In this document: piece after piece, positions 1-46,238 of the stretch
How the letters are laid out: each line of letters opens with the position of its first letter
Numbering within the stretch: position 1 is the first letter of the stretch
Origin: a virus
Lineage: Duplodnaviria; Caudoviricetes
Length of the DNA: 46,238 nt
IMG/VR virus record: IMGVR_UViG_3300037100_000084
Location: 1-46,238 of that record
Direction: 5' to 3' (one strand)
Notes under the pieces: model-generated
What the model saw: the letters and a program-made list of their open reading frames with translations, nothing else
The model's database searches: none
What the model was told of the DNA's origin: nothing
Program-made: the position numbers and the translations under genes

Positions 1-183
1 TCGATCTATCTGCTCGTGAGCCTGGACCATACCGTAGGGTGCGTTGCCCACGTGGTTGGTCAACATCGTTACTCCGTCGTCACCGAGGCGCACGAACTTG
101 GGGTCGTAGCATCCGGGGATCAGGCAGTTCCATGTGACGATCCCGCCGTCCCACTCGTGGATGGTGACCTGGGGCTTTTTCAC
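1..183 (-). CDS. Hypothetical protein, 3'-partial (MKKPQVTIHEWDGG...)
   Basis: Own translation: GTG at 183 abuts the upstream stop; frame stays open to the window edge. Confidence 0.45.
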   Translation of the reverse strand, partial: MKKPQVTIHEWDGGIVTWNCLIPGCYDPKFVRLGDDGVTMLTNHVGNAPYGMVQAHEQIDR

Positions 184-285
184 TCAATGTCCTTTGTAGA
201 CCTGTAGCCCAGCATAGAGAACCACGAGGAGCCCTCCATACCAAGCGATTCTCAGTGTCGTTCGCGTTTTTTGCAGAAATTTCAT
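184..285 (-). CDS. 33-aa hydrophobic peptide MKFLQKTRTTLRIAWYGGLLVVLYAGLQVYKGH (cassette slot 5, left)
   Basis: Own translation; ATGA overlap with 282..578, AGGAG upstream, one hydrophobic stretch. Confidence 0.5.
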   Translation of the reverse strand: MKFLQKTRTTLRIAWYGGLLVVLYAGLQVYKGH

Positions 286-578
286 TCGCTGGACTCCTGT
301 GAGAGGGACTCCAAAATGGCGTCACGAAGGAGTGTGAACGCGTCGTCGTAAACATCTTTGTGCGCCCACGGCAGGTTCCCGAGCGGTCGTGCGTCGGAGT
401 TCCAAATCTTCTCAATCAGCGAATCCAAAAATTCGCGGCTCAGTACAGGTGGCTCTACCGGGGCCGCGAAGTGACGCCATTCTCGGTACTGAGGGTCGGC
501 GTGAAACCATTTCTGTAGGAATGAATCCCACACGATTCCCTCTTCGCAGATTTTGCAAGTCAGGTCGCGGTCACTCAT
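282..578 (-). CDS. Modular cassette protein MSDRD-[CxxC..H module]-APVEPPVLSR-[module]-DAILESLSQE
   Basis: ORF track; shares three motifs with 44519..44929 but the intervening segments are unrelated. Confidence 0.75.
   Translation of the reverse strand: MSDRDLTCKICEEGIVWDSFLQKWFHADPQYREWRHFAAPVEPPVLSREFLDSLIEKIWNSDARPLGNLPWAHKDVYDDAFTLLRDAILESLSQESSE
294..329. repeat. Junction repeat C, copy 1 (36 bp)
   Basis: ctcctgtgagagggactccaaaatggcgtcacgaag; 35/36 identical to 44528-44563. Confidence 0.95.
434..465. repeat. Intragenic junction repeat B, copy 1 (32 bp)
   Basis: cgcggctcagtacaggtggctctaccggggcc; identical to 44677-44708. Confidence 0.95.
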
Positions 579-593
579 TCGCGGGGCTCCCCA
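564..593. repeat. Junction repeat D, copy 1 (30 bp)
   Basis: gtcgcggtcactcattcgcggggctcccca; identical to 44915-44944. Confidence 0.95.
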
Positions 594-841
594 AAAGTGA
601 AAGGTTCAGGGTCAGTTTGCGCGAAGTCTTGACCCGCGCACTCGTGAGAGCAGTACCATGACCAGTCGTGCCAGACGCCTCGCAGCCCGACCTTTCCGGG
701 CGCAAGTTGATTGAATGACGCGCCGCACTTTCGGCACGAGCGTAGGAAACGCTGCCCTTCTACGGAGTCTTTTGGGTATCCCATCACGGACCGCTCACGA
801 AGTGGATAGTCGTACGGCATGATTTTCGTTTCGTCGTTCAT
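575..841 (-). CDS. Small Cys-containing (CxxC...CxxxC) hypothetical protein, cassette cargo
   Basis: ORF track; ATGA overlaps at both ends. Confidence 0.7.
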   Translation of the reverse strand: MNDETKIMPYDYPLRERSVMGYPKDSVEGQRFLRSCRKCGASFNQLAPGKVGLRGVWHDWSWYCSHECAGQDFAQTDPEPFTFGEPRE

Positions 842-861
842 CCTTGCGTCCCTACAGGTGG
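838..861. repeat. Junction repeat A
   Basis: tcatccttgcgtccctacaggtgg; reads PPVGTQG-stop/ATG on the minus strand. Confidence 0.95.
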
Positions 862-1410
862 TGCCGCCAGCCTTTGCGAAAATCTGTCTAACGCCCGTTG
901 CATCGAGTGACTGCCGGGGAACAGGTCTATGAACTCGTCGTCGGTTTCGTACACCAAGAGGTCGAGTATCCAGTCATTGAAAGCGTCGGGCTTGGCTCCG
1001 CGTTGTCCGGTCTGTCGCGTCACCGCGCAGCTGAGCCAGTCGCGGACCATTGGCTTACGCTTGTTGTCTTTCCGCGCTGGTTGGAAGATCACCGGCTCCC
1101 AGGCGTATTGAACGGTCGTTGGCCTGATCTGGTGCCAGGTCTTTGTCCACGCAGCGACGCGAAACGGAACATTCACGGCCTTCCCGTCCTCTTTGCGCTG
1201 GCGGCAACCCGTCGCTACATGCAAGTCGCTGGGATTGCAGGAGTAGGCCCAACCGTCAGCGTTCGCGGCAAGCCAGCTGAGAAGTTTGTTGTGAGTGTTC
1301 GCCGCGTCCCAGCACTCCCCATCCCACGGCATTTCTCCGCCATCATTGTGAAAGTGCTCGTAGCTGGCGCATTGTCCTAGGTAAGGAGGATCGGCGTAGA
1401 CGAGTTTCAT
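838..1410 (-). CDS. Compact amino-(N4-C/N6-A) DNA methyltransferase-like protein
   Basis: N-terminal DPPY, later KP and DLFPGS (FxG-like), i.e. beta-class motif order. Confidence 0.7.
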   Translation of the reverse strand: MKLVYADPPYLGQCASYEHFHNDGGEMPWDGECWDAANTHNKLLSWLAANADGWAYSCNPSDLHVATGCRQRKEDGKAVNVPFRVAAWTKTWHQIRPTTVQYAWEPVIFQPARKDNKRKPMVRDWLSCAVTRQTGQRGAKPDAFNDWILDLLVYETDDEFIDLFPGSHSMQRALDRFSQRLAAPPVGTQG

Positions 1411-1431
1411 TCTTGCGTCCCTACAGGTGGC
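1407..1431. repeat. Junction repeat A
   Basis: tcattcttgcgtccctacaggtggc (PPVGTQE-stop/ATG). Confidence 0.95.
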
Positions 1432-1628
1432 CCCGAATCAACAGGCGTTAGAGTTGCGATGCCGTGAAGGGCGTTCGCCAGATCGTCCAATGAGCAAAAC
1501 TTCTCTTGAATGATCGTGCCACCACCCCACGGCTTTGGACCGGCGATGCGCGTGTCATTGAGATAGAACGAGTTGCCCTCAACGCCCTTCATGAAGAGGA
1601 TGCTGATGGTCTTGGTTTCGTCACGCAT
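1407..1628 (-). CDS. Hypothetical protein, cassette cargo (73 aa)
   Basis: ORF track; AAAGGAG SD upstream; ends in PPVGTQE. Confidence 0.75.
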   Translation of the reverse strand: MRDETKTISILFMKGVEGNSFYLNDTRIAGPKPWGGGTIIQEKFCSLDDLANALHGIATLTPVDSGPPVGTQE

Positions 1629-1671
1629 TTTTCAATCTCCTTTCGGTTGCGTCCCTACAGGTGGCGACAGA
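1626..1671. repeat. Junction repeat A* (long variant)
   Basis: catttttcaatctcctttcggttgcgtccctacaggtggcgacaga; first 27 bp identical to 46212-46238. Confidence 0.95.
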
Positions 1672-2009
1672 ACAGCGGCCAACTTTTCACGCCATTTTTC
1701 GACGGCGATCCGCCATGAGTTGCTGGGCCAACCCGAGTCCGCATAACGGTCCTCGATCAGCCGCGAAGCCTCGTTCAGCGCGTCAACAACTTCCTGCTCC
1801 AGGCGCGGCGCGGGTACTGGCTCTACCGGCGCACGCCAATTTTTGCAATCGCACGCGGGACGCGGCGCAAAGTCAGTTGGTGTCCAAGGAAAACGGCACG
1901 AGAAGTGACCGCAGTCGGGATTGGCTCCGCACTCCATCTGGAGCAAGTCATCATCGTGCCGGTGAAATGACATCGCGTGACCGCACTTACACGGATCTTC
2001 GTCGCTCAT
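1632..2009 (-). CDS. Two-module protein: Cys/His-rich domain, APVEPV linker, helical domain
   Basis: Start moved to MSDEDPCKCGH (ATGA overlap with 2006..2560); ends SPPVGTQPKGD. Confidence 0.7.
   Translation of the reverse strand: MSDEDPCKCGHAMSFHRHDDDLLQMECGANPDCGHFSCRFPWTPTDFAPRPACDCKNWRAPVEPVPAPRLEQEVVDALNEASRLIEDRYADSGWPSNSWRIAVEKWREKLAAVLSPPVGTQPKGD
1814..1832. repeat. Degenerate repeat B (intragenic)
   Basis: gtactggctctaccggcgc, encoding APVEPV. Confidence 0.7.
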
Positions 2010-2036
2010 TTCTCTTCCCGCCCCTCTACTGGTGCA
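2006..2036. repeat. Junction repeat A' (variant)
   Basis: cccctctactggtgca core at 2021-2036, shared with 2566-2581; APVEG..stop/ATG. Confidence 0.85.
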
Positions 2037-2560
2037 CCGAAAATCAAAAGCACGCATCCGAACGGAGGGCGGTTATTTGCAGCCGCTCCCTCATCGCCGG
2101 GGTTGGTGAACTTCAATCGCCCTCGAATGAACTGTGTCCGTAGTCTCGAGTCGTCTCTGTCGCGAATTGGCTCTACAAGGTCTTGCCACCACGACTGTTC
2201 TGTGCGGTTTGCCGGAAGCAACATGACCGTTTCGCACGATGAATTAAGAGCTTTACGGACCCACGGCTCGATATTGGAGTAGGGAGGGTTGCACCACACG
2301 ATCTCGTCGTCCCAGTCTTGCTCTAACCCGTTGTCTTGCGCCGTGTAGAACTTTGCGCACTTGGCATTGGCTACGCTCGCCGCAACGTCCACTGTGAAAC
2401 GAAAGTTTCGATCCCACTCGTCAAAGAACGATTGGGGGGTTCCTCGGTCATCGACCTCTTCTGCCGGATCCACGTCAGGGCCAAACAGTCGCGGCGAGTT
2501 CGGGCGCTTGGCTACCTGTTGAGGATGGTTCTTAGCCTTGAAACGTGAAAGTCCGCTCAT
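2006..2560 (-). CDS. Phage DNA N6-adenine methyltransferase (phage Dam-type family)
   Basis: TP..FF, FTVDVAAS..NAKC, WCNPPYS, LLPANRTE..WW and GRLKF motifs. Confidence 0.9.
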   Translation of the reverse strand: MSGLSRFKAKNHPQQVAKRPNSPRLFGPDVDPAEEVDDRGTPQSFFDEWDRNFRFTVDVAASVANAKCAKFYTAQDNGLEQDWDDEIVWCNPPYSNIEPWVRKALNSSCETVMLLPANRTEQSWWQDLVEPIRDRDDSRLRTQFIRGRLKFTNPGDEGAAANNRPPFGCVLLIFGAPVEGREEK

Positions 2561-2581
2561 TCCGTCCCCTCTACTGGTGCA
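2554..2581. repeat. Junction repeat A' (variant)
   Basis: cgctcattccgtcccctctactggtgca; APVEGTE-stop/ATG. Confidence 0.85.
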
Positions 2582-3144
2582 GCGGACTTCTCTCCCTCGT
2601 CGGTCGGTTCGGGGTCAGCGACTACCTCTACTATTAAATCTTTCGAGTTGTTTAATGCTGCCGCCTCAATCGCCGCGTGAAGTCGTCGCAACTCTTGTTG
2701 AAGATACGCCTCAGGCATCGTCTCCGCGACGAACCACAGCAATTCGTCCTCGGCTTGCGCGTTCACAATCGCCAGCACGTGCGAACAGTTCTCGCAGCCG
2801 TCGCCCAAACACGTCGGGTGGTCAGCGACTACGAGGGGCAGGGACTCGATGATTTCGATTGCCGTTTCCAGACCTGCCCAAAAGTGGGGCTCCATAGCTG
2901 CCTCGCGCGGGTCGTCAAGTCGAGCGGTCTCGTCACTGTAGGTTTGCAGCGCATCTATCGCTTCTTTTCTGCTAATGGCGTCAGTCATGGGGGGCCTCCA
3001 GTTCTCGTCTAGCTCGAAGTCCTCGCACGGGCAGTCGTCGCAGCCATGAGGCGCGGGCGCGTGCCAGTGGCGCACTCCTCCGCAGACGCAGCGGTCCATG
3101 GCAGGGACGCCGTGGCGGATCGGGTAGTCGGGGTGCTTTATCAT
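2557..3144 (-). CDS. Multi-module hypothetical protein with N-terminal Cys/His-rich domain
   Basis: Start MIKHP at ATGA overlap; CVCG...H...CDDCPC; internal MTDAISRKEAI could be a second start (2988). Confidence 0.65.
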   Translation of the reverse strand: MIKHPDYPIRHGVPAMDRCVCGGVRHWHAPAPHGCDDCPCEDFELDENWRPPMTDAISRKEAIDALQTYSDETARLDDPREAAMEPHFWAGLETAIEIIESLPLVVADHPTCLGDGCENCSHVLAIVNAQAEDELLWFVAETMPEAYLQQELRRLHAAIEAAALNNSKDLIVEVVADPEPTDEGEKSAAPVEGTE

Positions 3145-6085: not shown

Positions 6086-6108
6086 CACTCTCCCTTCAGA
6101 GTGCAGTA

Positions 6109-6137
6109 ATCCTGCCATGAATAAAGCGGTGAGTCAA
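6109..6137 (-). promoter_or_regulatory. Sigma70/SigA-like promoter
   Basis: TTGACT-17 bp-CAGGAT with TG extension, in an AT-rich intergenic gap. Confidence 0.55.
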
Positions 6138-6179
6138 GCCAATCAGCAGAAAATATGTAAAAAATTCTGAGGCCGATTC

Positions 6180-7073
6180 CTACCTTTGGTTTTCCGCAGC
6201 CTCACGTGCCAGACGCTCTTCACGGTCCCAGGCGCTCTCGTGGTCATCTTCACCGGCGTCCACAATCTCAGCGTCGACCACGTCGTCATCTAGCAGGCTG
6301 TCGTCGAAGGGCTGAACGTCAGGCTCTTCCTCGGCCGTCATCTGACGCACGACGTGGTTGTCGACTGCCTCGGCTTGCATCAGCTCGACACTCATCGGGA
6401 GCCACGCCTTCATGCGCAGGAAGCAGGTCTTCCAAGCCATCGCTTCGAACTGATCCTTGTCAGCCCACGGGCCCTTGAGTTGACCACCCTTCTTGCCGTA
6501 GCGATCACGGTGATGCTCGACCTCGCTCTTGTGCATGACGACGAAGTTGCGACCGCCGTTGGTCTTGCGCACGACGACGTAGTAGTGCGTCGCGGGCCCA
6601 CGCTCTTCGACTGGGCAGGGCACGTGGACGAGGCGCTCGTCGAGTCCGTACTCCATTTCCAGCTTGTCGCCTTCGAAGACGGTGCGAGGAGTGATCGACA
6701 GGATCTCACCGGTGCGGTGAGCGAGCTCGGCGTAGCCCCGGTAGCCAATGATCAGCGTGGCCTCGTGGCCATACGGCACCAGGTACGCCTGCTGCATTGG
6801 ACCGAACTCGAGACCAAGGGCCGCGGCGTTGAGGATGCCACCAAAGAACGACGCCGGCGAGCAGTCGAGCAGCTTGGGCGTGGTGCGCACCAGCGTCTGG
6901 ACGGTGCGAACGTATCGCGCGGCGTCCATCTGCATGGGCAACGCCTTCTGGATCTCGGGCGTCTGCTTCTCGATCATGTCGCGCAGGCTCTTCGAACCAG
7001 TGGTTGCAATCTCGGTGGACGCTGCTTCTTTGACGGCGTTACGCGCCGCCTCGGCCTTTGAATCTTGTGTCAT
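6180..7073 (-). CDS. recT: RecT family single-strand annealing protein
   Basis: IQKALP...PKLLDC...LGLE...AYLVPY...IIGYRGY.EL..R...W...FEAMA.KT; acidic tail; adjacent exonuclease. Confidence 0.95.
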   Translation of the reverse strand: MTQDSKAEAARNAVKEAASTEIATTGSKSLRDMIEKQTPEIQKALPMQMDAARYVRTVQTLVRTTPKLLDCSPASFFGGILNAAALGLEFGPMQQAYLVPYGHEATLIIGYRGYAELAHRTGEILSITPRTVFEGDKLEMEYGLDERLVHVPCPVEERGPATHYYVVVRKTNGGRNFVVMHKSEVEHHRDRYGKKGGQLKGPWADKDQFEAMAWKTCFLRMKAWLPMSVELMQAEAVDNHVVRQMTAEEEPDVQPFDDSLLDDDVVDAEIVDAGEDDHESAWDREERLAREAAENQR

Positions 7074-8008
7074 TTTGCCCCCTTCGGCACTGACCAGCGC
7101 CGCGACTCGCTCGCGGCGACTGTGTATTCCTTACGCTGTACAACTTGCCACTTGGCTACGATATCCCCGTCGTGTCGCGCCACTTCTGCCCCATCCATCA
7201 GGACAATCATCCGATTCTCAATCTCGTTCAGGCGCTGGGTCTCTATCTCGATCGCGGCCTTTTGTGTGGCGCGTCGTTGCAAGAGCGTTACGAACTCATC
7301 GTCAACTTCGATTTCCTCGCGCGTGGCGTTGGCGTAGTGCGCCCTCAAGGCTTCCTTGGTGGACTCTGAGCCATCGATCTCTGGCATGCGCTGAAGCGTG
7401 ATGAGTGTCCACATGCGCTCCTCGGCCTTCACCATGTCAGCGATCAGTTCCTCGTCGCGATCGACGGCGAACCAGGTGAACTTGTTGCCCCCAATGAGCG
7501 CCGCGAAGTAGACCCGGCTGAGTCCCGTGACCGCCAGGTAGTGCTGCCCTTGAAGGCGCACGTGCAACGGAGGTCCCTCGGCCCACTCTTTGGCGTTGTA
7601 GGACCCAACGTTCTTCGCCTCGAGTATCTCAATCTCGCCGGTCTCTGAGTTGGTCACGAAGGCGTCGACGTTAGCGAGCATCCAGTTCCACTTCGTAGAG
7701 CGAAGCATGACCGGCTGGCGCTCAACGACGAGTTTGTTCTGGTCTGCGAACCAGGAGGTGATCAGGGGTTCGGCGCGACGGCCCGCTTCAAAGATTTCCT
7801 TGTCCTCGTCGGGCTGAGGGTCGACCTTGTCCAGGTAGAGCGCGACGGGACTCATGTAGGGCGACAATCCCATGGAAGCAGCTGCGTCCGAGCCACCTAG
7901 TCCGGTGCGCCGCAACTCCAGCCACTCTTCGCGCGAGACGGCGTCGGTGTCCTCGCAGACCACCTCGCACTGAAAAGTGCTAAAGAAATCTAGGGCCGAT
8001 TTCGTCAT
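7070..8008 (-). CDS. YqaJ-like viral recombinase exonuclease
   Basis: WLELRRTGLGGSD...G...E...MLANVDA...LEAKN...QGQHYLAVTG. Confidence 0.93.
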   Translation of the reverse strand: MTKSALDFFSTFQCEVVCEDTDAVSREEWLELRRTGLGGSDAAASMGLSPYMSPVALYLDKVDPQPDEDKEIFEAGRRAEPLITSWFADQNKLVVERQPVMLRSTKWNWMLANVDAFVTNSETGEIEILEAKNVGSYNAKEWAEGPPLHVRLQGQHYLAVTGLSRVYFAALIGGNKFTWFAVDRDEELIADMVKAEERMWTLITLQRMPEIDGSESTKEALRAHYANATREEIEVDDEFVTLLQRRATQKAAIEIETQRLNEIENRMIVLMDGAEVARHDGDIVAKWQVVQRKEYTVAASESRRWSVPKGAK

Positions 8009-8009
8009 C

Positions 8010-8294
8010 TCATTTTCCTTTTGGCGCTCCACACGCCGGGCAAAATCCTGAGCGCAACTTCGTGTGGTCACGTTGGCAGGTCTCTGTGACATCGACGGCG
8101 CCACCGCCAGCCTTGGCTTGTTCGAGTCGTCGCTCGCAGTCGACGAGGATGTGGAAGCACTTCATGGCCTTCTCGCGTGCGACCCCGAGTTCATCTTCGA
8201 GTCGCTTGACCTCGCCCTGCGCACTGGCCGTGTCCATGACTGCGTGGTCGTACTCACGTTGGGCACCGATCAGGGTGATCATGGGCTCAGTCAC
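8010..8294 (-). CDS. Hypothetical coiled-coil protein with C-terminal Zn ribbon
   Basis: ORF track; FCPACG. Confidence 0.65.
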   Translation of the reverse strand: MTEPMITLIGAQREYDHAVMDTASAQGEVKRLEDELGVAREKAMKCFHILVDCERRLEQAKAGGGAVDVTETCQRDHTKLRSGFCPACGAPKGK

Positions 8295-8500: not shown

Positions 8501-8559
8501 CCCTTCACTTGTGCCGCGATGCTATCACTCTGCCAAGTATCGTGCCAGCATTAGTGACA

Positions 8560-8600
8560 GAAAACACAACGTCCACCGCTCGAAGGGGAACGGTGGACGT
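8560..8600 (-). terminator. Intrinsic terminator of the structural/lysis operon
   Basis: 10-bp stem acgtccaccg/cggtggacgt followed by tgtgttttc on the minus strand. Confidence 0.7.
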
Positions 8601-8640
8601 CGCGTTGATTCAACGTTGCGCCGGTTACGGGCCGACAGGA

Positions 8641-31400: not shown

Positions 31401-34400
31401 GTTGATCTCTTCCTGGGTCGCCGTGCCGTCGGCGACCGTGCCACCAGCCTTGGTCTTGTACCCCACGCGGAAGTCAGAGATCAGCTTGTTGTGACGCTCC
31501 ATCTCGCTGCGAGCGGCCTGTAACAGGGTGCGAGTACCTTCATTCGAGTCGGCAGCGAACGCGGCCTGGCGGTCCTCGATCTTCGCGGCGATGCGCCGGC
31601 CGGTGATGATGTCCAAAGCGGTCTGCATCTGCGCGTCGCGCCCGCCACTGGCGTTGGCCGCGGCGATGCGCCTGAGCCACGGGTCGGTCGCGATGCCGCT
31701 CAGTTGGAAGTGCAGAGGGTCGATGAAGTCTTGTGACTCGTTGCCGTAGGACTGGTACGGGCCGGTGCGACTGATCGAGACCGGTGTCCCCTCGAGCGTC
31801 TGGATAGGCGCCTCTTGGTCGCTGCGTCCGATGTCACCGATGTAGATAGGCGTGTGGCCACTGATGTTGTCGATGTGCTCAGCGAAGGGCGTGTCGAGTA
31901 CTCCGCGGTCGGCGAGCGACTTGGCACCGTCCATGATGACGTCGGGGGTGAAGGCCGTGCCGGCTCGACGAAGCCACTGAACGGCGTGCCAGCCCTGGAT
32001 CGATGCGAGGATCTCGCCGCGGGTCTTGATCAGGCGCTGTGCCTCTTCAGGAATGTGGCTGGTGAGCGCGTTATACATTTTCCCAGCGTCGAGCTTGTTC
32101 ATGGCGCCAACGTCGCTGGCGTCGATGTTGAGATCAGCGGCCTTGGCGAGCACTGCGGCCTGGCGCGCTTCTTTCGTAGCGTTGGCCGTGTTCTCAATCG
32201 AACTGGCGACACGACCCTGCAGGTACGCGGCCGGCCCGTGACGAAGGATGAAGCTCAGCGCCTCCTCGCCGGCGAAGCGAACGGCGAAGCCGGGCCGGAG
32301 CAGCACGACGCGCTTCCAGTATGTCTGCATGAAGCGATCGAACATGTCCTGGTTGAGGCCCATTTGCATGGCCGACATGAACATCGACTTCTTGCCGAAC
32401 TGATAGACCTCGCGAAAGTTCGGCAGTGCGCGCAGATTGGAGAGCTGCGTGGGAGCGATGGCGTTGTCTTGGACCGGCGCGGTCGGATCCTTCGGGTTCG
32501 CGTACTTCGCGTTCTCGCCGTAGGAGTAGTGCTCGCGGTTCCAAAATTCATCGATCCACTGTTGGCCCTCGGGCGTCTTGTCGATGCCGGCGTAGGCGAA
32601 GCCGTCGTTGATCAGCGCCTTCAGGAAGTCGTCCTTCATGTCCGTCGACGTGAGCATTGACCAGCCGTTGCGAGCCTGGACGACCTTGTCCTCGGGCAGT
32701 GAGAGCGAGCGAGCGAGACGCTCAATCTGAGTGGCGTTCTCAGAGTCAGTGAGATCGATCCAGGTCTTCGGTTCGATGTTGGTGAGACGTCGACCCATAC
32801 GAGCGACGAAGCCGAGGTCCGCACTGTCTTCCTTCTCAGCTTCGATGGCGTCGCGCGCGGCGTTGCCGAATGCCTCGGTAGTGAGTTGGTTGAGCGACAT
32901 GGCGCCGGGGTTGAAGCGACGTCCCTGCAGGACCTTGTTGCCAACACCACGGAGATCCTCGAGTACGGCCTGGGGAATGGTGAGGTGAGGAAGGAGTACT
33001 CCGTTCTTGTAGAGACCACCGGCCTTGCCGCGAAAGAGGTTGGTGAGCGCCTGGTCCTTGGCCATCATCTCGCCGACGCCGACCTCGGGCGTGCCGGCCT
33101 GCAGGGTCTCGACGATGCGCGGGTACGCCTCGGTGATGTCGTGCTCCATGCCAACCGTCGAGATCCCGAGCTTGTCGAGGGCTGCGAAGTTGGGCGTCGA
33201 CGCGACCTTGGTCCCTTCGAGCGTCCCCTTCCCAAAGTCCTCAGTGACGGCCTTGGCGAACGAGTTCGCGAATCGCTTCGCGCCACCGATGTTCTTGAAA
33301 TACTGCAGGACGTCGCGGCCACCGCCCATCGAGTCGAGCGCCGTCGCGGAGTACTTCGCGGCCTTGAAGGCGCTGTTGGCCTGCATCCCGACAAAGAGGG
33401 GGTTGAGGTACCAGCCATTGAGCCCGTCCATGATGCCCGAGATCGGGTTGATCTTCATGCCGAATGGACTGATCTGGGTGGCTTGGTCGGGCGTCTCGCC
33501 ACGTGCAGTGGCGAGCGCGCTGGATCCCGCGAGGAGTCCACCAGTCCCGAGTGCGACAGCACCGCGGAGAGTCCCCGCACTTTCAAGCGCGGACGGTGCC
33601 TCCGTCGCTGCAAGGTCAAAGCCACCTTCGGTCGCCGCGCCACCGAGAGCGTCGCCGAGCGCCGGCCCGACGCCCCCGCTGTAGATCGCGGCCGCGGCTG
33701 CTGCAGCAGCGGACGTGTCGGTCGCGACTCGCACCCCCTCAATAGCACCGGTCTTCGTGAAAGGGTCGACGTCGTGCATCTGCTGAGCGCTGAGCCCACC
33801 AAAGAGCATCTGGCCGATCGAGAGGTGCGAGTCACTGAGAAGTTTCACAGCATCCATGAACTTGGGGTTCGACTGGATGAGCGCCGCTGCCTGGGCGCGC
33901 TCGCTCTGGGGAAGCGACGCGAGGCCAGCCTTCAGTGCGCCGGACGGGTCACTCGTTCCACCGTTCGCTGCGACGACCTTTGCGAGCGCGAGCGTCGGGC
34001 CAGTGATGCCCATGAACTTCTGGACGTACTGGATCGACGCCGGTTGAAAACTTGACGCACCGTTCTTGACCGCGCCCCAGTTGTGGAGGAGCGCTGAGGG
34101 GTCGAGGATGTGTAGCCAGTCGCTGACGCGCTGGCCAACGCTTTGCTGGGTGGACTCTTCGATGAGATTTGGAGAGTTCGTTGGTGCCGTGGGGCTCTCG
34201 CCGAGGAGACTTCGCTGCGCGGTGAGCGCGACGTCGCGCTCGGCCTGATTGATTGGCTTCATGGCCGCACCGAACACCTCGCCAGGCCCCTTGATGGCGA
34301 CATCGTTGACTCCTTGACCGACGTCGCCGGCGTAATGGCGCACCTTGTCGAAGACCGACGAGCCGGCGTGACGAACATCGTCGGCCGCGTGGACAATCGA

Positions 34401-34856
34401 GTGCCAGAACCCGCCGCTCGAGGCTTGCTTGGCGACGTCCTGCTCCTTCGGCGGGATGTAGCCACCCTGGATCAGCATCGACTTTGTCGAGTCCGAGAGG
34501 TTCTTCCAGTAGTTCGACTGCCAGTCGACGTCCTGCTTTTGGAGCATTTTGGCCATCTTCGAAGCGGTCTGTTGGGCGGTGACGACCTGCGCGCGTATCG
34601 CAGCATCGTTGGCAGTGGTCGCCGAGGACGCAACGCCGACGACTGACGCCGGATCGAGGGTGGGTGCTGCGTTCGCCGCGGCCGCGAGCTTGTCGCCGAT
34701 CGGCGTGGTGGTGACGGGACCGCCGATCGGCGTCGACGTGGCAGCTGCAACGCCGCTGGTGTTGGGCGTGAGGGTCGGCTGGGTCGTTGTCGTGGTCGGA
34801 GGAGGAGTGATCGGCCCGGTGGTGACCGGGCCCCCCGCGCCCATGGTGTCGGTCAT
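28419..34856 (-). CDS. Giant (2145 aa) internal virion / DNA-ejection protein
   Basis: Size, helical composition, WK..VLLRPGF..R and PF..AQEQF..RW motifs, podovirus-like synteny. Confidence 0.7.
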   Translation of the reverse strand: MTDTMGAGGPVTTGPITPPPTTTTTQPTLTPNTSGVAAATSTPIGGPVTTTPIGDKLAAAANAAPTLDPASVVGVASSATTANDAAIRAQVVTAQQTASKMAKMLQKQDVDWQSNYWKNLSDSTKSMLIQGGYIPPKEQDVAKQASSGGFWHSIVHAADDVRHAGSSVFDKVRHYAGDVGQGVNDVAIKGPGEVFGAAMKPINQAERDVALTAQRSLLGESPTAPTNSPNLIEESTQQSVGQRVSDWLHILDPSALLHNWGAVKNGASSFQPASIQYVQKFMGITGPTLALAKVVAANGGTSDPSGALKAGLASLPQSERAQAAALIQSNPKFMDAVKLLSDSHLSIGQMLFGGLSAQQMHDVDPFTKTGAIEGVRVATDTSAAAAAAAAIYSGGVGPALGDALGGAATEGGFDLAATEAPSALESAGTLRGAVALGTGGLLAGSSALATARGETPDQATQISPFGMKINPISGIMDGLNGWYLNPLFVGMQANSAFKAAKYSATALDSMGGGRDVLQYFKNIGGAKRFANSFAKAVTEDFGKGTLEGTKVASTPNFAALDKLGISTVGMEHDITEAYPRIVETLQAGTPEVGVGEMMAKDQALTNLFRGKAGGLYKNGVLLPHLTIPQAVLEDLRGVGNKVLQGRRFNPGAMSLNQLTTEAFGNAARDAIEAEKEDSADLGFVARMGRRLTNIEPKTWIDLTDSENATQIERLARSLSLPEDKVVQARNGWSMLTSTDMKDDFLKALINDGFAYAGIDKTPEGQQWIDEFWNREHYSYGENAKYANPKDPTAPVQDNAIAPTQLSNLRALPNFREVYQFGKKSMFMSAMQMGLNQDMFDRFMQTYWKRVVLLRPGFAVRFAGEEALSFILRHGPAAYLQGRVASSIENTANATKEARQAAVLAKAADLNIDASDVGAMNKLDAGKMYNALTSHIPEEAQRLIKTRGEILASIQGWHAVQWLRRAGTAFTPDVIMDGAKSLADRGVLDTPFAEHIDNISGHTPIYIGDIGRSDQEAPIQTLEGTPVSISRTGPYQSYGNESQDFIDPLHFQLSGIATDPWLRRIAAANASGGRDAQMQTALDIITGRRIAAKIEDRQAAFAADSNEGTRTLLQAARSEMERHNKLISDFRVGYKTKAGGTVADGTATQEEINNDWANALVNHVNHFTMTDHGQEFTLPDGTTSTNWKMHADNEDATREAVDGPQPIRLADSLTAKTPWKIGTRDVDRQIDPANDTNPYSGIAKGEVRLFKAENATTSQEGLPALRNPGRSWTPNFQSAMDRAGTDGEVYKIDVPIDVARRDYDYHPASGQAAYDARYPEAAHDGHVSMPGDAHRLSQRMIEDVASGSKRAAEIKDDGDPEDISYEDEARRAGLHVVSDGDWIYVARNHADAAKLHELSDQMNHGPSEAQRKEFYEMIGYNGGGNVNDYLTHIDEMQHIGAHPDTRGVFESGDVVHGKEGDGSRNLLIDRLGQGIVPDATELEKVERLHWPTEILAPKQIAKIESGGIINRIMEYGMKEAVGRPANWLSRQPIFTYNYAISLDQAKTMITARGLVKMTEGMTEEEHSALVDALAHDIAMDRAFHMTIPFIHDPQSRSQFSVITRNLWPFWFAQEQFYKRWFRLFATYPEAWYKLSQTMNGLKSVGFVTTDQYGKEAFVYPGSQTMLGFLANSIFHANVPVQASFTGEISALNPTLTTGGAPWPSFGPIATVPMSILAGFFPHLEPIAQSILGPQAPPEKNGDWATQVIDQMLPSIASRLSEWYNEPSGGTKQEPGNATTNIGSSLYMSAAVQALQYLTSSGHDLTAQQQTNATDLQQYIDKVANWTKNLILIRAWAGLLAPASPNIQINDNGAGAALSALMSEMPYDEAVAAFIKAYPNATADTIFESTTSQVGESGTYVPATVQAQKFISDNSNFFETYPALAPWAIPAKAAKGLFNSDSYDTEISEGLRSRRPLSTPGSTDGWYQDYKFSQAAATYYPLESLMEAAESPTSAISVEAQAATGLTYEQAQAQVGMTGATEKEVQDKWAEFKTNFDQANPIFAEQVVTEGSQAAARRGLIVQDLQHAILNDALPKTEWSKQIEVMMAAYDQVSAAYNGVDGQPGNKGTHAATVEKENFITWGNQYAAAYPAVAPFWNGVLMKQTPG

Positions 34857-40948: not shown

Positions 40949-41086
40949 ATGATCAACTGTTCAAAGTGTGGTGGCGAAATCCACCCGCTAGAAGTTTTTC
41001 CTGGTGACAAGTGCATTAACTGTCACGCGGAAACTTTCACGATGCCAACGGCCGAAGACCTCACGCGCCTATGGGGTGGCAAGTGA
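40949..41086 (+). CDS. 45-aa zinc-finger protein MINCSKCGG...CINCH
   Basis: Own translation; GAAGGGA SD. Confidence 0.7.
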   Translation: MINCSKCGGEIHPLEVFPGDKCINCHAETFTMPTAEDLTRLWGGK

Positions 41087-41226
41087 TGACCGGCGGCGAC
41101 GAGGCAATCAAAGCGATTAAGGCTAGCCAGGCGCGAATTCACCAGGCAAGCGAAAAAGTGTTACGCGCCTACGCGGCCGCTGACGACATCGTAAACGCTA
41201 TCGAAGGAGAACTATTGCCAGCATGA
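41086..41226 (+). CDS. 46-aa helical peptide
   Basis: Own translation; TGATG coupling. Confidence 0.55.
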   Translation: MTGGDEAIKAIKASQARIHQASEKVLRAYAAADDIVNAIEGELLPA

Positions 41227-41317
41227 GACCGGCGCCTAGCGCGCCTACTGGGCCCGGTTACGCGGACCCGGTAGGGGTGAGAGTCACCCGAGAATCAAAG
41301 TAAATGAAGGGATTTAC

Positions 41318-41659
41318 ATGACCATGACCGAGACCAGGCAGGACGCGCGGAGCGCGCTCTACCTGCAGCTGGGCGAAACGCGGTACGAAACCGTGCGCGC
41401 TACGCTTACGAAGAAAGCCAGTATTTCGGCCGTTTTAAAGGGTTTGCAGTCTGTACGGGAGACTGAGACGCACCGGCGCGCCGAGATCATCGCCAAGACC
41501 GAAACAGTCAAAGGCGAAATGTTCCTCTCGCCAAGCGGGACATTCGTTTACGTGCTCAAGCCCGAAACGAGAAAGATCAACGGAGTCTCAACCAAGATGA
41601 TGAGCGTAAAGCACGTCATTCCTGTTGGCGACGTGCTGAGTTTCGAGGTGAAGCGATGA
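41318..41659 (+). CDS. Early hypothetical protein
   Basis: ORF track; GAAGGGA SD. Confidence 0.75.
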   Translation: MTMTETRQDARSALYLQLGETRYETVRATLTKKASISAVLKGLQSVRETETHRRAEIIAKTETVKGEMFLSPSGTFVYVLKPETRKINGVSTKMMSVKHVIPVGDVLSFEVKR

Positions 41660-41943
41660 CCGATCGCGCCGAGATCACCATTACCGAAATTCGCGCTGAC
41701 GAGGTAACAAGCATCGCGAAGATCCCGGGAATTGGGTACCGTTTCCGTGTTGTCTACGTGCTCGAGGATGGCACCGAGGAGCACAGCACCGAGACCCGCC
41801 GCCTACTGCGCGACGCAAAAGCCGAGCTGATGAGCTTGCCCAAGTCACCAGCACACCCTATGAAGGCGTGCTACACCGATGGCGAGTTTTGGGGAACCAG
41901 CACGAGCTACTACATTGGCCCGCGAGTGGGAGTAACCCAATGA
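41656..41943 (+). CDS. Early hypothetical protein
   Basis: ATGA overlap; GAGGTG SD. Confidence 0.75.
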   Translation: MTDRAEITITEIRADEVTSIAKIPGIGYRFRVVYVLEDGTEEHSTETRRLLRDAKAELMSLPKSPAHPMKACYTDGEFWGTSTSYYIGPRVGVTQ

Positions 41944-42230
41944 ACGAGGCCCGCCTAGACGCACTGTCACAGTGCGCGCGCGCAGTCGACGAGGTGCTAG
42001 ACACCATTCTGCGAAACCACGAGCCAGAAGCCTGGCAAGTGCTCACAGACGCCCGCGAAGCCGTTTTAGAGTCGGCAGACCCAGAGCTAGCAGCAACGTG
42101 GCGGGATCTCGAGAAGCAAGTGCGCGACTACGAAGACGGCGACCAAACCATGAACCAGGATCAGTACGAAGAGACCAGAGACGCGCGCGAAGAGGCTTTC
42201 TTCGCCATCGTGACAGATTGGAGGAACTAA
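41940..42230 (+). CDS. Early hypothetical acidic protein
   Basis: Start moved to MNEARL at ATGA overlap; GGGAG SD. Confidence 0.7.
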   Translation: MNEARLDALSQCARAVDEVLDTILRNHEPEAWQVLTDAREAVLESADPELAATWRDLEKQVRDYEDGDQTMNQDQYEETRDAREEAFFAIVTDWRN

Positions 42231-42355
42231 CAGGACCCAGCACGCGGAGCGCGTGCGCGCTGTCGATTGTCCCCGGCAGTGCGCAGGCGTTTCGAGTGAG
42301 ATCCATTCGATCGCTTCGCTGTTACCATGCGCAATAGGTCGCGCGAGGAGGAGAG

Positions 42356-42928
42356 ATGAGAAAGTCACTGGCCGCTGTCGCCGTGTTCGCTACGCTCGCC
42401 AATGTTTCGCTCGCCGGCGCGGCCGGGATCCACCAGCGCGCTCCCTACCAGGCGTTTGGCAATCTCTCGGGCGTGGGCGACTGCGGATATGAGAGCGACG
42501 CCAACCTGGTCCTACACCGCTGGCCACGCGCACGCATTACCACCGACGAAGTTGAGTCTGCCTATGACAACCTCGGTAACTTGTTCGCGGGCACGGACGT
42601 GACCACTGACGGTGGAGAGATCTGGACCGCGCAAGGACTATGGACCGCGCAGAACTACCTGTTATCCAAAGGCTTTGGTGGACACCGCGCGACGTCGATC
42701 GTTCAGGTAACTACCCGCGCAACGGAGATCGCCAGCGCCAACGACGGCGGTCTCGAGGTCGTGAACGAAGGCCCGGTGAGAATGCACGTGTTTGACATCA
42801 TCGCAGCGAATCGCACGCACGTGGTGATCGTCGACGACGGCTACGTGTATCACTACTCGTGGGCATGGCTCGACTGGGCCTACACGCAGAACTCAGAGAC
42901 CCTGAGCTACTACGCTGTCACCTGGTAA
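42356..42928 (+). CDS. Secreted papain-fold (cysteine peptidase-like) protein
   Basis: GAGGAGG SD; Sec-type signal peptide; GN....GDC and later H-V-F motif. Confidence 0.6.
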   Translation: MRKSLAAVAVFATLANVSLAGAAGIHQRAPYQAFGNLSGVGDCGYESDANLVLHRWPRARITTDEVESAYDNLGNLFAGTDVTTDGGEIWTAQGLWTAQNYLLSKGFGGHRATSIVQVTTRATEIASANDGGLEVVNEGPVRMHVFDIIAANRTHVVIVDDGYVYHYSWAWLDWAYTQNSETLSYYAVTW

Positions 42929-43133
42929 TTCGGTCCCACTGCGCGTACAGAACCTCGGGATCGCCGTCGCAGTTGTCGATGCGACGCCAAAGCTCCTCGG
43001 GGCTGGATTGCAACATTTCGTGTGAAGTTTCTACATCGATTGTTGCAACGTCGCCCCGCAGAAGTAGCGCGAGCGCGTCCTCAAACTCCATGTTCATCTT
43101 GATGGGTGTGTCGTAGTCAGGGTAATTCCTCAC
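42918..43133 (-). CDS. Hypothetical protein
   Basis: GTGA overlap with the resolvase gene. Confidence 0.5.
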   Translation of the reverse strand: MRNYPDYDTPIKMNMEFEDALALLLRGDVATIDVETSHEMLQSSPEELWRRIDNCDGDPEVLYAQWDRITR

Positions 43134-43621
43134 TTCTTTCGCGCATCCTTCGCCGCCGCCTTGAGCGTCTCGCGCTCCATGGTCGCCAGGTAGGTCATAT
43201 CGCACACCACGATCGTCGCGCCGACGTGAGAGAGGCCCACGGCGTACATCTTGACCGCACCAATGGAGTAGACCAGCGAGTCGTCGGCCAACAGGCCGGC
43301 GTCGACCATGGAGTCGAGACACGAGCGAATCAGCTTGTCGATGTCGGGCTTAGTCGTGTGCAGGACGCGGTACGGATCAGACTTCACGACCGGCAGTCTG
43401 AACTCGATATGGACGGACACGGGCCCACTGAAGGGCATCCCGCGGTCCTCCAGCGCCTCAAGGGCACCTTCAGCGACCAGCGTGCGCCAGACCTTGTGCT
43501 TCTCACGTCCAGTCTTCGAACTTCCATCCACGACCACGGCGCGCTTGCCGACCACGAAGGCCGACTTTGATCCTTGGGGATGGGGGACGCCTATGACCTT
43601 GAACTCAATATCGGCGGTCAC
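43130..43621 (-). CDS. rusA: RusA-like Holliday junction resolvase
   Basis: G.P.PQGSK...WR...KPDIDKL.R...D......DDS.V. Confidence 0.9.
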   Translation of the reverse strand: MTADIEFKVIGVPHPQGSKSAFVVGKRAVVVDGSSKTGREKHKVWRTLVAEGALEALEDRGMPFSGPVSVHIEFRLPVVKSDPYRVLHTTKPDIDKLIRSCLDSMVDAGLLADDSLVYSIGAVKMYAVGLSHVGATIVVCDMTYLATMERETLKAAAKDARKK

Positions 43622-43908
43622 GCGTCGACGCGCCTGCAAAGTTCACGAGCGAGTCCTACGCGAGCGTGTGGACTGATGCCGTGGCTGGAGATCGTGTAGT
43701 AGCCACTGTCTCCGTCGGGGTGAACGAACTGAACCACGACGATCCAGTCGCCGAGCAGTGAGCCCTCAGGGATGGAGTGGTCGTCGCCCCAGTCGCAGTC
43801 GGCCGGCGCATCGAGACGGTTCGCCTCGCTGAGGTGCGTCTGCTCGCTCGCCAGGGTCGACGCGATCGAGTCTTTGACTAGCTCGAGTACCTGCTCGCCG
43901 TCGGTCAT
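43618..43908 (-). CDS. Hypothetical protein
   Basis: ORF track; overlap with next gene. Confidence 0.65.
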   Translation of the reverse strand: MTDGEQVLELVKDSIASTLASEQTHLSEANRLDAPADCDWGDDHSIPEGSLLGDWIVVVQFVHPDGDSGYYTISSHGISPHARVGLARELCRRVDA

Positions 43909-43990
43909 TCACGGTCCTGATCGTAAATAGTTCCACATGTGTGTGGGCCGTTCAATTCGTCCTCGAGGTAGCACGCCACGCACCGGCCAC

Positions 43991-44341
43991 TCAGTACCCG
44001 TGACACGTGCCACCAAGGTCGGGCATCCCGTTCACCTTCGCGAACTGATACAGCGCCCACGTCTGTTCGAGTGGCGTCGCTAAGTTCATGGAGAAGGGCA
44101 TCCAGGACAGTCTGTACGTCGCCCACGTTGCTGATCTCCAACCCAAACCGCCGAAATACTTCGGCCCATCGATCGCCCACGGGTCCGGCTGGCCATCCTC
44201 CTCGCAGTGATCCACCCACCTCCCTTGGACCATCATCACGGGCGTGACGTGGAGCTGCGCCGGCGTCATTGGAATGGGAGCGCCGGCGTGCGACGAAAGA
44301 GAGAAGCTCAGAACTAAAGAAATTTTGGCTGCTAGAAACAC
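43991..44341 (-). CDS. Secreted Rpf-like / transglycosylase-domain protein
   Basis: Signal-like N-terminus; CEEDG...YFGGLG....TW.......ATPLEQ. Confidence 0.72.
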   Translation of the reverse strand: MFLAAKISLVLSFSLSSHAGAPIPMTPAQLHVTPVMMVQGRWVDHCEEDGQPDPWAIDGPKYFGGLGWRSATWATYRLSWMPFSMNLATPLEQTWALYQFAKVNGMPDLGGTCHGY

Positions 44342-44432
44342 GAGACCGCCTTGATTGAGGAATGGGACTTCGCACTGCGCGTCGGTCAGTCACGGCCCTC
44401 CCCTCTGTCTCGGAGTTCTGTAAGAACGCTAG

Positions 44433-44522
44433 TCAACGGTGAAACCTCACGATGGCCAGGCAGATGTCGCCGCCGATCTCAATGCCGATGAGCCAAAGCA
44501 GGATCGCGCGAAACAGTCTCAT
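44433..44522 (-). CDS. 29-aa hydrophobic peptide MRLFRAILLWLIGIEIGGDICLAIVRFHR (cassette slot 5, right)
   Basis: Own translation; ATGA overlap; AGGAGG SD. Confidence 0.5.
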   Translation of the reverse strand: MRLFRAILLWLIGIEIGGDICLAIVRFHR

Positions 44523-44929
44523 TCGGCCTCCTGTGAGAGAGACTCCAAAATGGCGTCACGAAGTTCTTCGATTCTTGCCATGATGACGCCCGTCTCGGTA
44601 TCAGAGTACGAGGTGCCCTCATAAATCCGGGAGCGCAGCATCGCTAACACTGCATCCGTAAATGGTCGAATATCGGCGCGGCTCAGTACAGGTGGCTCTA
44701 CCGGGGCCAAAAGTGTTGCCGCGATTTCTTCGGCTTTCGCGAATGGGTCTTGAAACGCGCCGAGGTCAACGTTGTCATATGGTCCAGCGGGGCGGCAGAG
44801 ATAAAGCGTGTTGTCCGCGTAGGCGTGGAACTGCAATCCATCACCAAAGGTCGCCTTCATGGCGTCGAACGGCCCTTTCAGTTCCTGCCATTCAAGAGTC
44901 TTTCGGCCTTTTTCGTCGCGGTCACTCAT
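44519..44929 (-). CDS. Modular cassette protein MSDRD-[module]-APVEPPVLSR-[module]-DAILESLSQE
   Basis: ORF track; motif scaffold shared with 282..578. Confidence 0.75.
   Translation of the reverse strand: MSDRDEKGRKTLEWQELKGPFDAMKATFGDGLQFHAYADNTLYLCRPAGPYDNVDLGAFQDPFAKAEEIAATLLAPVEPPVLSRADIRPFTDAVLAMLRSRIYEGTSYSDTETGVIMARIEELRDAILESLSQEAE
44528..44563. repeat. Junction repeat C, copy 2
   Basis: 35/36 identical to 294-329. Confidence 0.95.
44677..44708. repeat. Intragenic junction repeat B, copy 2
   Basis: Identical to 434-465. Confidence 0.95.
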
Positions 44930-44944
44930 TCGCGGGGCTCCCCA
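44915..44944. repeat. Junction repeat D, copy 2
   Basis: Identical to 564-593. Confidence 0.95.
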
Positions 44945-45218
44945 CAGAAAACGTCACGAAATCCCAGTCCTCGTCGTACGATTCGGCGGTAAAGGTGTAG
45001 CCAAGTTCCATCGCCAGGAGTTCCAACTGAGGACGAAGCGCCGGGTACTCATAGTCGCTCAGAACGGTCGGGCGTCCACTTTTCAGCCGGTGGCGCAGGT
45101 CCGAGTAGCGAGCGCCGCACACAAAGGCGTGGTCGTCAAGCGTGCCGCCTCCGGATTTACACACGACGAACGGGACCACCAGCGCATTCTCGTGCTCGTC
45201 GTGAATTTCGTCGCTCAT
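44922..45218 (-). CDS. Hypothetical protein, cassette cargo (LVVPFVVCKS.GG..DD.AFV.G)
   Basis: ORF track; bounded by repeats A and D. Confidence 0.75.
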   Translation of the reverse strand: MSDEIHDEHENALVVPFVVCKSGGGTLDDHAFVCGARYSDLRHRLKSGRPTVLSDYEYPALRPQLELLAMELGYTFTAESYDEDWDFVTFSVGSPANE

Positions 45219-45245
45219 TCTTGCGTCACTACAGGTGGCGACAGA
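45215..45245. repeat. Junction repeat A
   Basis: tcattcttgcgtcactacaggtggcgacaga (LSPPVVTQE-stop/ATG). Confidence 0.95.
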
Positions 45246-45913
45246 TGTTGCAGAAGTTGTTGGCCGATTTCTTGCGTGTATCGCGGCGGGATGGCTTGGT
45301 GGAGTTCCTTCTGAGTCATCCAGTCGATGCCCATGAGTTTCTCTTGAATGGATTTCGCAGGCGTGTAGCCACCGTGACGCACGTACTGAGCGTGTTTCTT
45401 GTCTCGTGAGCCCCCGCCATAGACCCCAGCTACCCTCGCACCTGATGCTCGATAAACCGCACAGTTACATTGCCAGCCGCCGACTTTCCAACTCAACTCG
45501 AAGAGCCGGTGTCGTTTCAGGTACAGCGTTTCCCCGTCGGTGTCCGTCGCCGTTAGGTCAAAGACCGTTCCACATAACAAAGCCGAGGGAAGCATTGGTG
45601 CACCGACGACATTCTCAATGATGTAGGGAAGGCCAATATCGTCAAGCAATTCTCTCGTTATTCCTACCAGATCGGGGTGCTCTTTCTTGTGGGTGTGTTT
45701 CGTTATCGAATACGCCTGGCATGGAGGAGAGGCGTGAATGGCGTCGAAACCCGTGAGATACCGCGCCGCGTTTAGGGCATTGCCCTGGTGAAACTCGAAC
45801 GGATAATTCTTCTGCGGACTCAGATCCACGCCAACAACTTCAAAACCGGCATCCGCGTACCCCATCGCCGCTCCACCCGCTCCGCAGAACAAATCCAAAA
45901 GTCGAGGCTTCAT
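45215..45913 (-). CDS. DNA cytosine-C5 methyltransferase
   Basis: LLDLFCGAGG, SPPCQ, IENV, R.R.F and AIPP motifs; start moved to MKPRLL. Confidence 0.92.
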   Translation of the reverse strand: MKPRLLDLFCGAGGAAMGYADAGFEVVGVDLSPQKNYPFEFHQGNALNAARYLTGFDAIHASPPCQAYSITKHTHKKEHPDLVGITRELLDDIGLPYIIENVVGAPMLPSALLCGTVFDLTATDTDGETLYLKRHRLFELSWKVGGWQCNCAVYRASGARVAGVYGGGSRDKKHAQYVRHGGYTPAKSIQEKLMGIDWMTQKELHQAIPPRYTQEIGQQLLQHLSPPVVTQE

Positions 45914-45935
45914 TCTTGCGTCCCTACAGGTGGCG
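45909..45935. repeat. Junction repeat A
   Basis: ttcattcttgcgtccctacaggtggcg. Confidence 0.95.
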
Positions 45936-45948
45936 CCGAACGACTCAT
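45910..45948 (-). CDS. 12-codon mini-ORF MSRSAPPVGTQE
   Basis: Own translation; ATGA overlaps at both ends. Confidence 0.4.
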   Translation of the reverse strand: MSRSAPPVGTQE

Positions 45949-46214
45949 CTTTCAATCCAAAGAACGATCTTTCCGTACTTCTCTATTGCGTCGATTAGTT
46001 CCCGAGCCTCGAGGCAGACTAGATCGTTGCCCCCACCGTCCATTAAACCTTCGAGGAAAGGCACAATTTCAGAGCCGACTTCGGTTTCGTCGGTTCGGAG
46101 CGTGCTGTCGTGCCCCCACAGACGTGGCGCGAGTTTCCACGGTAGTTGATCTAGCGGGTGAATGTCCTCTTTGGGGGGAGGACTCCACGGCTTCCAATAT
46201 GTCGTTGCGCTCAT
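45945..46214 (-). CDS. Hypothetical protein, cassette cargo (89 aa)
   Basis: ORF track; AAAGGAG SD from repeat A*. Confidence 0.75.
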   Translation of the reverse strand: MSATTYWKPWSPPPKEDIHPLDQLPWKLAPRLWGHDSTLRTDETEVGSEIVPFLEGLMDGGGNDLVCLEARELIDAIEKYGKIVLWIER

Positions 46215-46238
46215 TTTTCAATCTCCTTTCGGTTGCGT
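46212..46238. repeat. Junction repeat A*, truncated by the window end
   Basis: catttttcaatctcctttcggttgcgt identical to 1626-1652. Confidence 0.95.

Follow-up and report, generated by a model that had tools for sequence, protein, structure and literature searches.

Look-alike ends of a tailed-phage record share near-identical coding linkers around unrelated genes and are likely two alleles of one gene row

The record IMGVR_UViG_3300037100_000084 of IMG/VR was analysed at its full length of 46,238 bases and is called the window below. It is a whole record, classed as linear and rated 100% complete, and it represents a tailed phage whose minus strand carries the genes for terminase, portal, major capsid protein, RecE-like exonuclease, RecT, Dam and RusA. 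At either end of the window lies a row of small genes which are separated, or internally divided, by short coding sequences that recur almost unchanged. We refer to these sequences as linkers, designated by letters, and to the DNA between them as cargo. A previous sequence-only reading had taken the two ends for parallel arrays in one genome, in which linkers define ordered, addressable slots whose function is kept although the genes are replaced.

The composition of both ends was found as described there: all listed open reading frames (ORFs) are present on the minus strand with the lengths given (Table 1). Linkers A*, D and B are identical between the ends, while C, for which at most one mismatch had been noted as well, differs at two positions of its full match. 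The 18-nucleotide (nt) core of linker A occurs five times in the window at three or fewer mismatches, compared to 0.02 occurrences expected from shuffled sequences. Besides these linkers the ends have nothing in common. If positions 1-4500 are compared with 41001-46238 by blastn and tblastx, linkers are the sole matches, and BLASTP of six slot-matched cargo pairs with trimmed linker residues gave E 0.33 at best or no match. The left and right methyltransferases align over a 19-residue cofactor-binding motif only (hhalign probability 1.8%). Since this motif is located at the C end of the left and at the N end of the right protein, both belong to different classes. The left protein was assigned by its motifs and weak Pfam matches: DPPY is invariant among 57 aligned homologues, of which 30 match D12 and 10 match N6_N4, the window's own protein remaining below cut-off. 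Sequence searches of PDB with both methyltransferases gave weak matches to the cofactor motif only.

Thus the claim that the cargo is not a set of diverged homologues holds. An old operon duplication, with genes diverged past recognition, is largely refuted: it fits the equal order of parts and the methyltransferase in second place at both ends, but the linkers are 95-100% identical while their neighbours share nothing, cargo lengths differ, and the methyltransferases meet in that one motif at opposite protein ends. The pattern of linkers and cargo at the window ends is real. Three details had been missed: in transcription order the record begins mid-A*; the row extends upstream to about position 2845 with more linkers (J, E, E, F, G); and the first A of the right end is a separate 12-codon ORF rather than the tail of the 89-aa (amino acid) gene. 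This ORF suggests that stop/start coupling is kept even in an empty slot. A similar filler of 17 codons is found in another locus (L044, 9205-9260).

Two parallel arrays in one genome, in contrast, are probably an assembly product. The look-alike ends likely represent two alleles of a single variable row, joined by assembly, as a colinear relative with a single row, the sharing of an assembly node at A* and contig depths indicate. The strongest test for one locus is the contig PLXU01000050.1 (41,182 bp), which is colinear with the window (TerL 64%, capsid 70%, RecE 57%, RecT 44%, RusA 50%). It contains RecT, the row, the transglycosylase-like gene and RusA in one piece, and all nine linker matches fall within 1.8 kb, with none on the rest of the contig. 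A transglycosylase-like gene follows the row in loci L021 and L034 as well, the same as at the right end of the window. The L021 gene passes PF06737; that of L044 gave no BLASTP match to it and a Pfam match below cut-off only.

The last 27 bases of the record are A* cut mid-core, and the identical 27 bases are found at 1626-1652. A branch in an assembly graph typically leaves such a short exact overlap at the contig end. In two runs the first gene of the right end is attached to the node of 1626-1655: in Logan contigs the 89-aa gene sits on at least 30 nt of it (X2, joint 1437-1626, side 30; X1, loose end 1626). No exact end-to-end overlap of 10-199 nt was detected that would represent a terminal direct repeat. 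If the ends are joined at A*, a 44,586-base circle with one row results, and 1-1625 is left over as a side branch. Single contigs lead from the right row to the core, covering 44098-45000 without differences in X2 and 43210-44556 with two differences in X3.

Depths were taken from Logan contigs of four runs (X1-X4), whereby contig depth should not be equated with copy number; the runs X16-X20, with small shares, were left out. In X1 the core reaches 9.5 and 8.7 on its two sides and the right cargo 11-14, while left-only cargo shows 3.2-5.0; this is about half the core depth and thus favours two alleles of one locus. In X3, with a core at 4.5-5.7 and the right methyltransferase at about 5.7-5.8, left-only cargo reaches 6.8-8.7, so that this core would be absent from most phages carrying it in that run. 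The missing cover of 601-900 and 1201-1350 in X2 (core 5-6) was not counted as evidence, since such a gap has no value as proof. The start of the 73-aa gene (1479-1666) and positions 1-183 are several-fold deeper than the core in all four runs, and are thus considered common to more abundant phages.

Alternatively, an out-of-register crossover might have placed both rows truly in tandem (left row, unassembled gap, right row), the linkers still being sites of homologous recombination. The record is classed as linear, its left end continues into DNA outside the window, it shows itself a path from the core into the left row, and L044 repeats part of a row (D, then F, G, A again). However, this arrangement is improbable given the single row of the colinear relative. 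Furthermore, C is not followed by another A, neither in L019 (about 460 nt) nor within 40 kb past the right row. Left-only cargo has half the core depth in X1 and more than the core in X3 and X4, while the right cargo reaches at least core depth in X1-X3.

Linker rows are not restricted to the window. Scanning metagenome contigs for the A core revealed 23 loci, 16 of them with rows, and two more were found via other linkers (L039, L044). Bare short matches without a row were dropped before counting, namely seven of the 23 (L015, L016, L017, L023, L025, L030, L031) and all four of L040-L043. L021 is the same DNA as L009, while L014 and L029, sharing 428 nt, were both kept in the order count. 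An all-against-all comparison resulted in about ten families of coding linkers that are reused in the 18 other loci. With a ranking of J, I, H, F, G, A, D, B, C, in which E, K, M and N were not included, different linkers standing next to each other in these loci and the two window ends agree with the order in 48 of 51 pairs, and the three exceptions loop back (L020, L022, L044). Linker order in the relatives is consequently not random. The proposed ordered, addressable slots are nevertheless supported in part only: the order is nearly fixed, but A occurs one to three times per row, E floats and the order may loop back.

The gene content of L033, where DNA polymerase A, adenylosuccinate synthetase and dUTPase adjoin the row, demonstrates that the linker set crosses phage groups. 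The adenylosuccinate synthetase-like protein lies at 999-2057 (+), beside the other two; genes of this type have been associated with DNA containing modified bases in some phages. In L035 a row of A, D and B (73-1275, -) is followed at short distance by a weak match to PF03175 (protein-primed-type DNA polymerase B, below cut-off), hinting at yet another phage type. L039 belongs to a 97%-complete 48-kb phage record in which H, F and G lie in one 226-aa gene (5800-6480, -), with no match to A. The runs that contain the right end of the window are peat metagenomes for the most part. Linkers were not found in any isolate phage, the sole match there being a methyltransferase start in actinophages, and linker A plus extension had no match among GTDB genome contigs. 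The host of the window phage is probably an actinobacterium, judging from a colinear relative in a metagenome-assembled genome titled Acidimicrobiaceae, a WhiB gene in a linker-sharing phage and the actinophage methyltransferase matches.

The row cargo comprises mostly small proteins of no family, together with several DNA methyltransferase classes. Phage methyltransferases have an established role against host restriction, and those of the row presumably act likewise. Of 20 distinct genes situated behind an A linker, 7 were counted by hand as methyltransferases, namely four of C5 type, one of N6/N4 type, one Dam and the DPPY protein of the left end, in addition to one 30-aa stub. At this frequency, agreement at one of three A slots is nothing unusual. 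Methyltransferases stand back to back in L032, two places apart in L036 and are missing before D in L021. The gene two places before D is no methyltransferase in L021 and, judged from the C-terminal part that is visible, the same applies to L035 and L044. L014 and L029 represent a second case in which one methyltransferase stands in place of another, C5 versus Dam before the same 96-aa gene. Methyltransferases are favoured cargo of the zone, not a fixed slot. The idea of a kept slot function is weakened by this. A short hydrophobic peptide does close the row in three independent lineages (the left end of the window, equal to L019, its right end, and L021). No such peptide follows the L035 row or was seen in L034, and these peptides are too short to judge homology. 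A 30-aa stub in L028 (1024-1116, +) carries a linker-like tail and is possibly a deletion product; we take its start to resemble an adenine methyltransferase motif.

Exchange at linkers is indicated by the ends of near-identical DNA shared between loci (stretches of at least 60 nt and at least 93%; ends partly dependent and from metagenome assemblies): 14 of 25 distinct ends lie on a linker of both partners, against a background of 10.9% of positions. The 73-aa gene was observed with five tails and the C5 methyltransferase with three, while one tail is common to the family of the left methyltransferase and a C5 enzyme not related to it (P0016, L027). Modules within genes vary in the same manner. 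P0122 has the first module of the 136-aa protein and a different second one; P0123 has neither, yet identical linker peptides. Logan contigs contain other fills between the same linkers, with five entries for C-B, six for B-D and four for D-A. In L044 the D-B module of L019 exits through a stretch common to B and F into G, looping back in order.

On DNA level, linker D is read in two frames and all other linkers in one. Changes among copies are rare (one in four copies of B, none in five of D), and linker valines are almost all encoded by GTA, which accounts for 4% of core valines. The two frames of D and the GTA bias point to a constraint on the linker DNA as such, while our mismatch limits would hide more diverged copies. 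Row genes as a whole (1-3000 and 44400-46238) have a GC content at third codon positions of 0.63 versus 0.79 in the core and use GTA for 27% versus 4% of valines. CCNGTA occurs 13 times in 4.8 kb of rows versus 24 times in 41.4 kb, counted on the coding strand.

One might argue that linkers are kept for translation or as flexible Pro/Val-rich spacers, and that the mix-and-match largely reflects assemblers crossing from strain to strain at short identical words. This would agree with the single frame of all linkers but D, with the purine-rich stretch and overlapping stop/start in which most of them end, and with the record's own ends, which suggest one crossing of this kind. Yet many unrelated modules are found with the same linkers on both sides within single contigs, where no phasing is needed; B, F, G and H lie inside genes; synonymous sites are almost invariant, including the rare GTA codons; and D works in two frames. 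We therefore regard this explanation as unlikely.

We favour, with a probability of about two in three, that the record represents one genome once round plus about 1.6 kb, with ends that are two alleles and linkers that serve as crossover points for the phage's RecET. The record starts in A*, continues via one row version and the whole genome to A* again, and exits by another version. In one relative the row is a single locus between RecET and the transglycosylase-like gene plus RusA, and numerous peat phages, some with different replication genes, carry linkers of 15-40 nt in near-constant order around unrelated genes or gene parts. During co-infection the RecE-like exonuclease and RecT may anneal linkers, and a double crossover at two of them would replace the intervening DNA. 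Since each linker is either an in-frame protein segment or a stop/start overlap accompanied by a ribosome-binding-like stretch, frames and coupled translation would be kept in recombinants, which would thus survive. Repeated exchange would keep linkers identical, while crossovers out of register, pairing like linkers (A with A, B with F), could lead to modules being gained, lost or looped back. RecT and the exonuclease encoded in the window provide a general recombinase. For Red-beta, a relative of this RecT, the minimal pairing length is given as 23-27 bp (PMC3945230). B, C, D and extended A reach this length.

Integron cassette arrays are likewise composed of co-oriented unrelated short genes with repeated sites between them, features that the window row displays too. 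An integron-like site-specific recombinase, possibly host-encoded, might thus swap cassettes at linkers: A, B, E, F, G and H contain a CCNGTA core which is enriched on the coding strand of the rows, and the left B copy with its flanks (430-470) forms a DNA hairpin (z -5.45). However, the other three B copies do not fold in this way (z -0.4 to -1.8), and none of the other seven linker stretches folded stands out. A six-frame search of the record for tyrosine, serine and Y1 recombinases (PF00589, PF00239, PF01797) gave no match, a host enzyme being outside that search. Unlike integrons, the window has neither an integrase nor a common palindromic site, and linkers of about ten families differ from slot to slot, lie within genes and contain the ends of shared DNA at varying points. 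Neither folding nor Rfam revealed attC-type hairpin sites (no dedicated attC model was run), there was no Rfam match at gathering score, and no terminator stem-loop is conserved (one of eight stretches folds above chance). A scan limited to sigma-70-type promoters found no site in 1-9000. We regard an integron-like recombinase acting at the linkers as very improbable.

Several points weigh against two alleles exchanged by RecET. Logan contigs break at linkers, and the true upstream neighbour of the right A* is unseen. The 73-aa gene has an A* tail elsewhere (P0136), an E-to-A path via another gene exists at core-like depth in X1 (joint 1677-2006), and one or two cassettes may thus be different at the exact closure. 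L044 demonstrates that parts of a row can be repeated, and the relatives are metagenome assemblies which could be misjoined at the linkers themselves. The order ranking was derived from the same contigs, with F-G pairs often overlapping. Furthermore, 11 of the 25 shared-DNA ends fall off defined linkers, at 15-20 nt the exact cores of A, E, F and G fall short of 23-27 bp, and no RecT was found on the L033 and L039 stretches (whole records not searched).

Short conserved boundary sequences have been described at the mosaic joints of lambdoid phages (Susskind and Botstein, 1978; Clark et al., 2001, as cited in PMC3029335). As in the window, a short common sequence marks joints with unrelated DNA between them, and homologous recombination was proposed. 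In contrast, about ten families are found here near-ordered in one row of small genes, several of them intragenic, and across different replication genes. At most mosaic joints boundary sequences are not detectable (PMC3029335). In mycobacteriophage Island3 the adjacent, unrelated genes 67 and 68 have a common C-terminal stretch (18 residues, about 50 bp), where recombination inserted or deleted a gene (PMC3029335). Common gene tails and an actinobacterial phage, as the window phage probably is, make both cases alike, while Island3 represents one event at one repeat and not a population-wide ordered set of multiple linkers. PeSL cassettes of T4-type phages are repeats in variable regions, between which genes are swapped, and end in a ribosome-binding site and start codon (PMC2839356). 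They are, however, intergenic promoter-plus-terminator units, whereas the window linkers are coding, located in reading frames or stop/start overlaps, and lack a sigma-70-type promoter or conserved hairpin. Rad52-like recombinases (Red-beta, RecT, Erf) drive mosaicism in E. coli phages at longer, diverged homology (PMC3945230). The encoded RecT and exonuclease, the fit of 24-40 nt linkers to 23-27 bp and small gene fragments as common unit correspond to this, and a comparable process may operate in the window phage.

An ordered, multi-linker, intragenic set that crosses phage groups had no description in the literature searched, which left most subscription papers outside, including the original boundary-sequence papers. 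Apart from the assembly aspect, the locus thus represents a clear example of ordered shuffling guided by linkers throughout a population, which is of the known boundary-sequence kind. Tentatively, and with more doubt than confidence, one might speculate that linkers form a community-wide address code, i.e., ordered coding words selected for exchange itself, by which genes and modules are traded by position without a dedicated recombinase. If so, new fusion proteins would be built combinatorially, and methyltransferases of different classes above all would be traded among distant peat phages that differ in replication machinery. The boundary-sequence model becomes directly testable at a locus that combines about ten linkers in order with dozens of alleles from the same habitat and a candidate recombinase: crossovers could be counted for each linker length, and one may ask whether linkers are selected for exchange or merely survive it. 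Linker shuffling would also explain small phage proteins of no family as module fusions, as well as the spread of methyltransferase classes. As a practical lesson, linkers can send an assembler through a locus twice, resulting in a seemingly complete record with two alleles.

Table 1. Genes and linkers of the row and its flanking core in the window (full matches between linker copies are given as identical positions).
Feature	Position	Strand	Remarks
RecE/YqaJ-like exonuclease	7070..8104	-	PF09588, TIGR03033 above cut-off
RecT single-strand annealing protein, candidate swapping enzyme	6180..7073	-	PF03837, TIGR00616 above cut-off
Linker J, inside 143-aa gene 2557-2988	2820..2845	-	26/26 with L033
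Linker E copy 1, gene tail and junction	2556..2598	-	common to L029, L021, L024
Dam-type adenine methyltransferase, 184 aa	2006..2560	-	PF05869 E 8.7e-27
Linker E copy 2	2006..2039	-	
Overlapping linkers F and G, inside 125-aa gene 1632-2009	1797..1834	-	15-copy family (window and relatives); also L039, L044
Full linker A*, where the record path crosses the locus a second time	1626..1666	-	
Left cargo 1, 73 aa	1407..1628	-	four other tails elsewhere (P0135-P0137, L024)
Linker A	1406..1437	-	
Predicted amino-methyltransferase, 190 aa; DPPY at N end, DLFPG at C end	838..1410	-	
Linker A	837..866	-	
Left cargo 3, 88 aa	575..841	-	identical in L019
Linker D, frame of upstream gene differs from right end	564..593	-	
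98-aa two-module protein with linkers B (434-465) and C (291-329)	282..578	-	
33-aa hydrophobic peptide	184..285	-	Kyte-Doolittle 1.63; one residue differs in L019
Start of further gene, cut by record end	1..183	-	far deeper in runs than core; 96% in L019
Linker A*, cut by record end: last 6 nt of A core, purine-rich ribosome-binding-like stretch, ATG	46212..46238	-	27/27 with 1626-1652
Right cargo 1, 89 aa, no family	45945..46214	-	Atlas: unnamed clusters only
12-codon ORF, linker A alone ('empty' cassette)	45910..45948	-	overlaps upstream stop and downstream start
Linker A	45909..45940	-	31/32 with 1406-1437
C5-type DNA methyltransferase-like gene, 232 aa	45215..45913	-	PF00145 E 1.3e-6; phrog_363 E 2.2e-34
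Linker A, methyltransferase tail	45214..45245	-	one core mismatch
Right cargo 3, 98 aa, no family	44922..45218	-	
Linker D, gene junction	44915..44944	-	30/30 with 564-593
136-aa two-module protein: D-B module joined in frame via B to B-C module	44519..44929	-	
Linker B, inside gene	44677..44708	-	32/32 with 434-465
Linker C, gene tail and ribosome-binding-like stretch	44525..44563	-	37/39 with 291-329
29-aa hydrophobic peptide	44433..44522	-	best 17-residue Kyte-Doolittle mean 1.96
Transglycosylase-like gene, downstream anchor of locus	43991..44341	-	38% and 43% to genes after L021 and L034 rows; Atlas 0.94
RusA-like resolvase, downstream core	43130..43639	-	PF05866; 50% to that of PLXU01000050.1

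Some further features of the window were recorded. In the IMG/VR protein search neither the terminase nor the gene at 1-183 had relatives, and three weak relatives of the transglycosylase-like gene were left out of the analysis. A 96-aa gene (43618-43908) resembled an L034 gene by eye, which BLASTP did not confirm. After the portal region an ORF of 2145 aa (28419-34856, -) has no Pfam or PHROG match and is 35-50% conserved in PLXU01000050.1. Between RusA and terminase, a few plus-strand ORFs of no family (113, 95 and 190 aa; 41318-42928, +) break the otherwise minus-strand genome. A stretch near 41228-41289 shows 87% identity in the colinear relative PLXU01000050.1.

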